Shown: one piece after another, positions 33,001 through 44,230 of the stretch
How positions within the stretch are numbered: the stretch's first letter is position 1
Layout: each line of letters opens with the position of its first letter
Assembly (NCBI RefSeq): GCF_013315695.1
Contig: NZ_CP054353.1
DNA: 64,000 nt
Strand: one strand, 5' to 3'
DNA from: Escherichia coli
GTDB taxonomy: Bacteria > Pseudomonadota > Gammaproteobacteria > Enterobacterales > Enterobacteriaceae
Position numbers: made by a program

Positions 33001-36000
33001 CAAACCCAGGGCGATTATGCTATCGCACAGCATTTCCTGACGAACCTGCCTACAGATGCTGGCGAATATGCCGTATTTCTTCATGCAACAACCCGAGATG
33101 ATAAACACTGGCCGGAAGAACACTGGCGAGAATTGATTGGTTTACTGGCTGATTCAGGAATACGGATTAAACTTCCGTGGGGCGCGCCGCATGAGGAAGA
33201 ACGAGCGAAACGACTGGCGGAAGGATTTGCTTATGTTGAAGTATTGCCGAAGATGAGTCTGGAAGGCGTTGCCCGCGTACTGGCTGGGGCTAAATTTGTA
33301 GTGTCGGTGGATACGGGGTTAAGCCATTTAACGGCGGCACTGGATAGACCCAATATCACGGTTTATGGACCTACCGATCCGGGATTAATTGGCGGGTATG
33401 GGAAGAATCAGATGGTTTGTAGGGCTCCGGGGAATGAGTTGTCTCAATTGACAGCAAATGCTGTTAAGCAATTCATTGAAGAAAACGCTGAAAAAGCTGC
33501 CATGATTTAAATTACAACTCTTTAATAGATAATTTTGAAATAAAATCAGCTTCCTTGCTGATTTTATTTCACATATTCATTACTTATCTAATAAACATTG
33601 GTCCGATTGTGCTTTAAAATAAGCACAAAGCAATATTATGGTGACAAACACAGCAGTCGGAACCGGTTTAGAAAAGAGTATTACATCACTTAGGCCTACT
33701 ACCAGTAGTGAAAAAAGCAAGATTAAAATATAAGGTTCTTTAGCAGTTCTTAAGGCATATATGAATATTGCTGAAAAGGCTAAAATTGTTAATACTACTC
33801 CAGGAATACCACGCGTTGATAACGTATCTATGAGATCGTTATGCAAATGAGAATCTACAAAGGGTAAAGCGCCACTTAATCTAGGCTCTTTCTCTTCTAG
33901 TTCATGTATTTTTTCCGCGCGTTTTTCCAGTGATTGTCCTATTGGAGAATATGTTTTTAAACCAACTTCATACATTGCCAGACGGGCACCGACTGAAGTT
34001 CTGGTGTTATCATGCGAATAATTAACTAAATCCCTATTTAAGTCATTCATTCTCGTAAGTAATGTATCTTTAAAAGAAAATACACCTGCTAATAATGCAA
34101 TCGCAATAAAACAATATAACTTATAATTAATTCGCTTATTAATATAACTATCCATTACGATTAATAGTAACGCAAAGAATGGAAACACTAATATGGCTGC
34201 ACGCGTTTCAGTTACTATAACAGCACATAAGCTAAGCATGAAGTTAATTGTATATAATGTTGTTTTATGTCTAAAGTCGGATTTTAAAATGAGAATTGAT
34301 GCCAGTAAAGAAGGGAAAAGGATGATGTAGCCTGCTGTTGTAGCGTGGGAAGCTGATAATGCAACACGGTCGACGTTTAAATAGAAATGTTGCCACATGG
34401 CATGCGAAAAAAAAAGTAACTGCGTTGCCAGGGATGCGAACAGAATTAGTTTCCCAAATTTTATTTGGGTTCTCATCTCATCTTTAGCAAAAAGAACTAA
34501 GAAAATAAAAGCACTACACAAGGCAATTTTTCCAGTTTCCATTGGGCCACGATATGCATTGGTATAAACCGAGCCTGAAACTTTATAATGTGAATACCAG
34601 ATGATATTAACGATACCCAAAAGACATAATGAGATAAAAATTAACAAAGTAGGATTATTAGTTATTGTTTTTTTTGGTGTCGCTAGAAAATATAATGCAG
34701 ATATAATTCCAGCTGCATGAAGAAACTTTGTTGCAACATCATCCCACAAAGACAAAGTCATTAAAGACAACATACATAATATGAGAATTAAAGACTTGAC
34801 ACCAGAGTTAATTTCTTTCCAACAAAACGACATATAATTTCAACCTATGCTAAGAGGATGGGTTATTTAATGCAAGACCTAACGTTTATTCTTTTTTCTA
34901 TTTACCAGTCTTACCATCCTCCAGAGAATATAGTTTTTTGATGCTAATATTTTTGCTCGCCTCTTATCTCTCTTGCCAAGAAGATTACAATCTTTCAATT
35001 CTTTTTCATTGCTTTCAACTAATTGATTTAATAATTCAAAATCGCCATTAATTAGAATATTCCATAAATAACGAGTTTTATGATAAGTTCTATTTTTACT
35101 CAATAATGTATGAATTTCTTCTTTCCGGTTACCTTTGTATAACTGCATCACAGAAGAGTAGATTCTTTCGTGCGCAAATGACTCATGTCGATAATGAGTG
35201 ATGGTTCTACATGAGTTCATTAAGGAATTTTCTCTATAGTTATGCTTATACATATAATATGGAACCGCATACATATCGCATGTAATTAGCAGTCGATAGA
35301 TAAAATCCAGATCTTCTCCTAGTCGTAAATCTTCATCAAAAAAAAGATTATTATCTTCCAGGAGTTGTTTTCTTATAAACAAGCACCCTATATGGAATCT
35401 GACCTTTTTATAAAAAAAATCGAAAAGTAAAGACCCTTCATTAAAATCTGTATTTATAGGTGAGTAAGTAACACCATTTTTTATATGATGTCCATAAAGC
35501 CCACAATAAATCGCATCCCCTCCCGTCTCATGTTGTCTGGAATACATCTTCAGCAGATAGTTAGGATCTATCTCATCATCATCATCCATAAAACATATAA
35601 ACTGTCCTTGCGCCTTGCGGATACCTGTATTCCTGGCAGACGAAACACCGCCATTTTCTTTATTGATAATAATTAATCGAGAGTGGGTTAACCCATACTC
35701 TCTCAAAACATTTGATGTGTTATCTTTAGAACCATCATTAACAATAACAATTTCAAAATTTGGGTAAGTTTGTTTTTCTAATTTCGTTAGAGTTTCAGTA
35801 ATGTAATCAGATGAATTATACGTCGGTATTATTATGGATACTAAAGGGTAATCATTGCTCATCGTGTTCTCTTGCCTGAACTAATAAAATATGATAGGAC
35901 TCATCCTTAATTATTATTGTAACTTAGACATCCATAATTTTTATTATTGCCTAAATAGTTTTCTTTTATACTTATTTAATTTGAATTTAATGAAGTAAAT

Positions 36001-42000: not shown

Positions 42001-44230
42001 CCCTGCGCAATTTCATTGACGCAGGCCAGATCGTCTTTATCTGGGCCGGACGTCAGAACGACTTCATAACCACGAGCATGTAAGGCATCAATCACAGCGG
42101 AAAACTTGGCGTTGTCCCAGCATTTGAAGATTTGCCGCGCCGTAGGTTGGATAACCACATAATTTTGTCCAACACCAGCGTGATCAAGTTCGCGACGCAT
42201 ACGTTTCCAGCTTGCAGGCGGGTAACTCATGGTTGTCTGCTTCACCAACGATTCAAGTCCCAATGGCGTCAGCACGGATAAGTTACTTTCCACCACATTT
42301 CCACCCTGCAACGGCACCAAATGAGTGAAACTATTACGCCAAAAAGCAGACTGCCGATGATGATAATCCTGGGAAATTTTCACACGGGCATTTAATAAGC
42401 GAACCAGTATAGCAACCATCCATTGATCGGTAAGATTAACGATAAGGTCATACTTATTGGCACGTAATACCTTGATGAGATGAAAAAAGTTGGCAATTTT
42501 TTCTGAAGCTTTTGCTTTTTTATTTTTTATGCCGTAGAGCGCGTTAATCTCTGGATTTTCAGACAGGATCGGGATGGTGTCCTGATAAAGCAGCACATCG
42601 ATTTTTGCGTCAGGGTAATTTTTTTTCAGCGAACTAATGACGGGAGTAGTTAATAACATATCCCCATGAAAACGCATCTTAATGAGCAAAATTCTTCGAA
42701 ATGGCTTATCCACAAGTAACTCTTTTTGTTGAGATTATCCGATTAAGGTGAAGCAGAAAAAGCACGCTACCGCCCCAGGCTCAACAGCTACCTGAATACT
42801 GATACCGCACTGATATTGACGCGCTAGTGTATCACTTCTTTCGCGGCAATCCGACCCGAATGATTTTTAAGCACATTGTTGATTTTCAATAAAGAAATCA
42901 ATCAAATAAAATCATTAGCAACCATATTCTTTTACTGTTGCTCTGCGATTCCTTCCTGCACGTACTGCAGAAATCAATGAATCGCATAAAAATACAAAAA
43001 AAGTATAGATGTTCAGCAAGAATTGGCGGGTAAATTGCTATTTAAGTCAAAAACGGGAAAAGTAATGGTAAAGCCACAGCTAAATACATAGAATCCCCAG
43101 CACATCCATAAGTCAGCTATTTACTATGCTCGAATTGCTTTACACCGCCCTTCTCTACCTTATTCAGCCGCTGATCTGGATACGGCTCTGGGTGCGCGGA
43201 CGTAAGGCTCCGGCCTATCGAAAACGCTGGGGTGAACGTTACGGTTTTTACCGCTATCCGCTAAAACCAGGCGGCATTATGCTGCACTCCGTCTCCGTCG
43301 GTGAAACTCTGGCGGCGATCCCGTTGGTGCGCGCACTGCGTCATCGTTATCCTGATTTACCGATTACCGTAACAACCATGACTCCAACCGGTTCGGAGCG
43401 CGTACAATCGGCTTTCGGGAAGGATGTTCAGCACGTTTATCTGCCGTATGACCTGCCCGATGCACTCAACCGTTTCCTGAATAAAGTCGACCCTAAACTG
43501 GTGTTGATTATGGAAACCGAACTATGGCCTAACCTGATTGCGGCGCTACATAAACGTAAAATTCCGCTGGTGATCGCTAACGCGCGACTCTCTGCCCGCT
43601 CGGCCGCAGGTTATGCCAAACTGGGTAAATTCGTCCGCCGCTTGCTGCGTCGTATTACGCTGATTGCCGCCCAAAATGAAGAAGATGGTGCACGTTTTGT
43701 GGCGCTGGGCGCAAAAAATAATCAGGTGACCGTTACCGGTAGCCTGAAATTCGATATTTCTGTAACGCCGCAGTTGGCTGCTAAAGCCGTGACGCTGCGC
43801 CGCCAGTGGGCACCACACCGCCCGGTATGGATTGCCACCAGCACTCATGAAGGCGAAGAGAGTGTGGTGATCGCCGCACATCAGGCATTGTTACAGCAAT
43901 TCCCGAATTTATTGCTCATCCTGGTACCCCGTCATCCAGAACGCTTCCCGGATGCGATTAACCTTGTCCGCCAGGCTGGACTAAGCTATATCACACGATC
44001 TTCAGGGGAAGTCCCCTCCACCAGCACGCAGGTTGTGGTTGGCGATACGATGGGCGAGTTGATGTTACTGTACGGCATTGCCGATCTCGCCTTTGTTGGC
44101 GGTTCACTGGTTGAACGTGGTGGGCATAATCCGCTGGAAGCGGCCGCACACGCTATTCCGGTATTGATGGGGCCGCATACGTTTAACTTTAAAGACATTT
44201 GCGCGCGGCTGGAGCAGGCAAGCGGGCTGA

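Follow-up and report, generated by a model that had tools for sequence, protein, structure and literature searches.

The R1 core oligosaccharide in the lipopolysaccharide (LPS) of Escherichia coli consists of a Glc-Glc-Gal-Gal backbone with a beta-Glc side branch. R1 strains (prototype F470; also E. coli C/NCTC122, CFT073, and Shigella sonnei) carry a waaQGPOTYWVL operon convergent with hldD-waaFC. We analyzed a 64-kb stretch of an E. coli genome (64,000 nucleotides of contig NZ_CP054353.1, assembly GCF_013315695.1; hereafter, the window), which contains the same genes in the same order and on the same strands. This region is almost certainly the standard and intact chromosomal waa (rfa) locus of an R1 core type E. 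coli. The original prediction, made from the sequence before this analysis, had assigned the operon to the R1 type (waaQGPOTYWVL), and this was borne out by in silico polymerase chain reaction (PCR), protein identities, and comparison with typed R1 genomes. Nothing at the locus is new, since the R1 waa cluster is known and a public genome already typed as R1 contains this exact allele. R1 is the commonest E. coli core type, and the locus touches no open question; it matters as annotation only, with the R1 status being useful strain metadata. The core type sets the O-antigen attachment site and affects the adsorption of LPS-binding phages (phiX174-like phages use the R1 core) and the binding of anti-core antibodies.

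In silico PCR was performed with the nine core-typing primers listed in Table 2 of PMC13293308, allowing up to three mismatches. This scheme has been validated in vitro on NCTC122 (PMC13293308). Exact matches were found for the R1-F primer at 35262-35280 (waaV) and for the R1R4-R primer at 36084-36103 (waaW), which gives the expected 842-bp R1 product (35262-36103). The other seven typing primers (R2, R3, R4, and K-12) had no site in the window with up to three mismatches, so that the typing PCR proposed in the original prediction yielded the R1 product only. In the control, CFT073 was typed as R1, 4973 as R4, C600 and an O25b:H4 strain as K-12, 149 as R3, and ETEC4089 as R2. The product sizes were as published, except for the O25b:H4 locus (1441 vs 1442 bp, one mismatch per primer).

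For comparative analysis, representative loci of each arrangement were fetched. MSB1_4I and CFT073 were both typed as R1 in the 2025 genome-wide core-typing study of Trofimova et al. (PMC13293308 supplement). WaaY is 100% identical to its CFT073 counterpart. WaaV, the GT2 enzyme, shares 99.1% identity with its CFT073 counterpart. The name given at source to an identical sequence, "UDP-glucose:(glucosyl)LPS beta-1,3-glucosyltransferase," denotes the WaaV activity; no BLASTP match to WaaV at E≤1e-3 was found in the R4, K-12, R2, or R3 loci. WaaL is 98.6% identical to the CFT073 ligase and 30% identical to that of K-12. Among the GT8 enzymes, WaaO is 97.6% identical to CFT073, 97.3% to R4, and 50%–55% to its K-12, R2, and R3 homologs; WaaT is 99.7% identical to both CFT073 and R4 and at most 45% to WaaJ of K-12, R2, and R3; WaaW is 99.1% identical to CFT073, 93.6% to R4, and at most 39% to K-12, R2, and R3. 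The suggested GT8 alignment therefore favored R1, with 97.6%–99.7% identity to WaaO, WaaT, and WaaW of CFT073 and no more than 55% to any K-12, R2, or R3 GT8 enzyme. No best match to WaaX or to a K-12, R2, or R3 enzyme, either of which would have spoken for another core type, was encountered. The proposed alignment of the GT2 protein against WaaV and WaaX held in its first half, the match to WaaV, but WaaX belongs to family GT25 rather than GT2, so there is no best-match contest and the R1/R4 distinction is one of gene presence or absence.

The gene order waaQGPOTYW is common to the R4 type, in which waaX and the R4 ligase follow. An R4-type locus could explain the 99% DNA identity to R4 from position 36025 to 44500 (waaW through waaQ and beyond), as the R1 and R4 types differ in the last two genes only. 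However, the gene after waaW encodes a 327-aa GT2 protein and not the 257-aa GT25 protein of R4, WaaL and the R4 ligase share just 35% identity, and no site for the R4-F primer exists even at three mismatches. The in silico PCR and the protein comparisons thus refute the assignment to R4, which has practically no chance of being correct.

Nothing of substance weighs against the R1 assignment. The link to R1 and its F470 prototype runs via CFT073, MSB1_4I, and the PCR scheme. The enzyme specificities and the core oligosaccharide structure of this strain are predicted from sequence. Family names can be an unsafe guide to the sugar transferred, and the automatic name of WaaO is misleading in this respect. 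Both RefSeq and NCBIfam call R1 WaaO (38712-39728) "lipopolysaccharide 3-alpha-galactosyltransferase," after the Salmonella homolog. It has been described as an alpha-1,3-glucosyltransferase (E. coli C/phiX174 preprint).

The nine minus-strand open reading frames (ORFs) span 33580-42713, with intergenic distances (gaps or overlaps) of -8 to 81 bp. In the order of transcription, waaQ-G-P-O-T-Y-W-V-L, their products were classified by Pfam and NCBIfam as GT9, GT4, kinase, GT8, GT8, kinase, GT8, GT2, and Wzy_C ligase. This unit is convergent with the plus-strand genes hldD-waaF-waaC (30538-33510) and divergent from waaA-coaD. The gene content, order, and strand predicted for a minus-strand operon downstream of hldD-waaF-waaC were confirmed by the ORFs and the Pfam and NCBIfam matches, and of the predicted ends, 33580 is exactly the waaL stop codon and 42790 falls within the leader, 77 nt upstream of the waaQ start codon. 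The features of the locus are as follows.

30538-31470, plus strand: hldD (rfaD/gmhD), ADP-glyceromanno-heptose 6-epimerase, first gene of the plus-strand operon (ORF; RefSeq annotation of the 99.994%-identical MSB1_4I locus).
31480-32526, plus strand: waaF, heptosyltransferase II (ORF; MSB1_4I annotation).
32530-33510, plus strand: waaC, heptosyltransferase I, 326 aa, with the last ~26 residues core-type-specific.
33536-33571, no strand: inverted repeat with a 15-bp stem between the convergent waaC and waaL stop codons (terminator-like scan).
33580-34833, minus strand: waaL, R1-type O-antigen ligase, 417 aa, polytopic, last gene of the waaQ operon (Pfam Wzy_C, 63.8 bits; hydropathy).
34879-35862, minus strand: waaV, GT2 beta-1,3-glucosyltransferase, 327 aa, the R1-defining gene (Pfam Glycos_transf_2, 134.8 bits).
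35944-36972, minus strand: waaW, GT8 alpha-1,2-galactosyltransferase, 342 aa (Pfam GT8 and GT8C; RefSeq [quoted passage not shown]).
36998-37690, minus strand: waaY, heptose(II) kinase, 230 aa (NCBIfam RfaY equivalog, 401.8 bits, cutoff 248).
37700-38695, minus strand: waaT, GT8 alpha-1,2-galactosyltransferase, 331 aa (Pfam GT8).
38712-39728, minus strand: waaO, GT8 alpha-1,3-glucosyltransferase, 338 aa (NCBIfam PRK15171 equivalog, 609 bits, cutoff 461).
39744-40541, minus strand: waaP, heptose(I) kinase, 265 aa (NCBIfam RfaP equivalog, 479 bits).
40534-41658, minus strand: waaG, GT4 glucosyltransferase I, 374 aa (Pfam Glycos_transf_1 and Glyco_transf_4).
41655-42713, minus strand: waaQ, GT9 heptosyltransferase III, 352 aa, first gene of the operon (NCBIfam RfaQ equivalog, 713.5 bits).
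42763-42801, minus strand: JUMPstart element with ops in the waaQ leader (Rfam RF01707).
43126-44890, plus strand: waaA (Kdo transferase, 43126-44403) and coaD (44411-44890), the divergent third waa operon (ORFs; MSB1_4I annotation).
33430-39744, no strand: low-GC (guanine plus cytosine, ~35%) core-type-specific cassette comprising the waaC 3' end, then waaL, V, W, Y, T, and O (per-gene GC; BLASTN junctions).

The start of waaP was placed by ORF calling at a GTG codon (40550) and by RefSeq at an ATG codon (40541; 265 aa). Hydropathy analysis of the ligase WaaL revealed about 9–10 hydrophobic segments. NCBIfam contained no model naming WaaL (0 matches) or WaaV, the best match for WaaV being a generic GT2 model (100.7 bits vs a cutoff of 423), and core typing was therefore based on comparison with typed genomes and not on names of hidden Markov models. 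WaaT and WaaW scored under the PRK15171 cutoff of NCBIfam.

Expression and LPS phenotype are not readable from sequence, and an R1 genotype could hide a cryptic defect resulting in a rough or truncated core. This is very improbable since the nine ORFs are complete and preceded by an intact JUMPstart/ops leader, and no insertion sequence (IS) elements or frameshifts were found in 33580-42801. All nine proteins could be aligned end to end with their CFT073 counterparts at 97.6%–100% identity, and there are therefore no pseudogenes among waaQGPOTYWVL.

The JUMPstart element at 42763-42801 (minus strand) was identified by Rfam model RF01707 with a score of 55.2 bits (gathering score 35; E=1e-10) and is located 50 nt upstream of waaQ, whose start codon is at 42713. 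It includes the ops sequence GGCGGTAGCGT at 42774-42764, and the ops pattern matches only once in the window. By its leader, the waaQ operon would fit the RfaH-dependent (JUMPstart/ops) class. The promoter scan returned 34 sites vs 31 expected by chance, and no promoter is claimed. The hairpin at 33536-33571 between the convergent stop codons is a probable bidirectional terminator. An Rfam match of the same hairpin to "MIR1886" was rejected as a chance hit (29 bits vs a gathering score of 62).

The LPS core assembly pathway may be reconstructed from the near-identity of these proteins to those of R1 strains, with the enzymology taken from the R1 prototype F470 and E. coli C via PMC3526765 and the E. 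coli C/phiX174 preprint. RfaH recruited at ops would suppress polarity and carry transcription through the 9.1-kb nine-gene operon. WaaC and WaaF are expected to add the first and second heptoses (HepI and HepII), and WaaG the first glucose (GlcI). In the heptose region, WaaP could phosphorylate HepI, WaaQ could add the third heptose (HepIII), and WaaY could phosphorylate HepII. The second glucose (GlcII, alpha-1,3) would then be added by WaaO, followed by attachment of the first galactose (GalI, alpha-1,2) to GlcII by WaaT and of the second galactose (GalII, alpha-1,2) to GalI by WaaW. WaaV, probably depending on the prior action of WaaW, would place on GlcII the beta-1,3-glucose side branch, the R1-specific O-antigen attachment site. 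At the periplasmic face, the R1-specific WaaL could transfer the undecaprenyl diphosphate (undecaprenyl-PP)-linked O-polysaccharide onto the glucose added by WaaV.

Megablast of the 9.5-kb region 33400-42900 against 5,426 complete E. coli genomes revealed 100% identity to MSB1_4I and 99.2% identity to CFT073. At least 80% of the query was covered in 1,825 of the 5,426 genomes, with 95%–100% identity to annotated loci, which indicates that these are real genes. One group of genomes, including the R4 strain 4973, matched only from query position 2626 (window position 36025) onward, and others only from waaP onward. The window is colinear with CFT073 over 14.5 kb at 98.97% identity and differs from MSB1_4I (LR898874.1) by 3 mismatches in 49.5 kb (window 13400-62900). 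MSB1_4I, a human rectal-swab isolate from Australia, is listed as phylogroup F, O1:H7, K1, sequence type (ST) 59 (PMC13293308 supplement). Given so few mismatches, the source strain probably belongs to the MSB1_4I lineage (phylogroup F, O1:H7, K1, ST59). There is only a slight chance that the few allelic differences from CFT073 (6 residues in WaaL and 8 in WaaO) change acceptor or donor specificity and thereby give this ST59-like O1:K1:H7 lineage a modified R1 core or a change in O-antigen ligation; the data contain no sign of this.

The R1-specific waaL-waaV segment was found in 1,834 of the 5,426 complete genomes (33.8%), once per genome and always on the chromosome. This agrees with the 35.4% share of R1 genomes in PMC13293308. 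The identity of this segment (33520-35930) fell into two bands, with 551 genomes at ≥99% and 1,282 at 95%–99%, which may reflect two major groups of R1 alleles. An R1/R4 hybrid, as described for ECOR46 (PMC13293308), would carry another waaX-waaL pair at a different genomic site, and the window represents only 64 kb of the genome. Nevertheless, a hybrid of this kind is extremely improbable here: neither waaX nor a second ligase gene was found in the window, the near-identical complete genome of MSB1_4I was typed as plain R1, and the waaL-waaV segment was single-copy in all 1,834 carriers.

The outer-core block was predicted to be AT-rich relative to its flanks, and it is: the six genes from waaL to waaO have a GC content of 32%–38% (35.1% for the block), compared with 47%–48% for waaP, waaG, and waaQ, 50%–54% for the genes on either side, and 51.8% for the remainder of the window. 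BLASTN against the R4, K-12, R3, and R2 loci showed that the type-specific DNA has its left junction within the 3' end of waaC (33410-33456) and its right junction within that of waaP (39744-39848). With R4 alone, the junction was at 36025, ~80 bp inside the 3' end of waaW. Protein alignment showed that WaaC diverges between core types from about residue 300, i.e., over the last ~26 residues, and the left recombination junction therefore lies within the waaC coding sequence. R1 WaaC has 326 aa, compared with 319 aa for R4 and K-12, 330 aa for R3, and 318 aa for R2.

Judging from its composition and junctions, the low-GC waaL-waaO block is an allelic cassette that occupies the chromosomal site at which the other four core types have their equivalent blocks. 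The idea of horizontally exchanged cassettes, advanced in the original prediction, gained support from the O25b:H4 strain. Its outer-core genes are of the K-12 type (91%–97% identical to K-12), yet its waaP, waaG, and waaQ are only 70%–81% identical to K-12 and 98.9% identical to the window. Hence, the assortment of the waaQGP alleles is independent of the outer-core cassette. The waaQGP genes (39744-42713) form two divergent allele lineages that do not track the outer-core type. The window waaQGP DNA is 98%–99% identical to the R3 strain, the R4 strain, and the K-12-type O25b:H4 strain, and ~82% identical to laboratory K-12 and the R2 enterotoxigenic E. coli strain, with only 73% identity for the WaaQ protein.

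The statement that R1 is the core type most often reported in extraintestinal pathogenic E. coli was correct but carries little diagnostic weight. R1 accounts for 60.4% of uropathogenic, 92.6% of neonatal meningitis, and 69.6% of avian pathogenic E. coli, and for 36.9% of commensals, where it is also the commonest type (PMC13293308), and it therefore says little about the pathotype. The authors of that study concluded that the core type has no strong link to pathotype, enterohemorrhagic E. coli with R3 excepted (PMC13293308).

Several features were observed outside the waaQ operon. The K-12 and R3 reference loci have the gene yibB (htrL) between kbl and hldD. The window lacks yibB and has only a 213-bp gap there (30325-30537); in CFT073 and the R4 strain, the gene is likewise missing from this position. 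IS1-like insA/insB ORFs (8872-9569) are located ~450 bp upstream of a gene for a YadA-like trimeric autotransporter (10025-15025; 1,666 aa) with four near-identical tandem repeats of ~84 aa each. The dinD gene (52335-53170) is split by a frameshift into ORFs of 159 and 77 aa and is annotated as a frameshifted pseudogene in MSB1_4I.

Among the known core types, K-12 shares the flanking operons, the three-operon layout, and homologs of waaQ, G, P, Y, and O (WaaO and WaaY are 51% and 52% identical to the window proteins), but, as originally predicted, its waaL is on the plus strand after waaC, and its outer core is encoded by waaS, B, O, J, Y, Z, and U, with no GT2 gene. R2 and R3 have flanks in common with the window, and R3 waaQGP are 98%–99% identical; in both types, waaL follows waaC on the plus strand, the outer core is encoded by waaO(I)-Y-J-D in R3 and waaS-like-B-O-J-Y-Z-K in R2, and neither has waaT, waaW, or waaV. 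Conversely, no homologs of the type-specific genes waaS/B/Z/U (K-12), waaK/Z (R2), and waaJ/D (R3) were found in the window. R4 (strain 4973) has WaaQGPOTY proteins 97%–100% and a WaaW 93.6% identical to those of the window, and the ligase gene is likewise the last in the minus-strand operon, but it has the 257-aa GT25 enzyme WaaX, a beta-galactosyltransferase, and a different ligase in place of the GT2 enzyme WaaV and the waaL of the window. With R1, in addition to gene content, order, and strands, the locus shares the 842-bp typing amplicon, the low-GC outer-core block, and the JUMPstart leader; only allelic variation separates it from R1 strain CFT073 (6 aa in WaaL and 8 aa in WaaO), and none from MSB1_4I.

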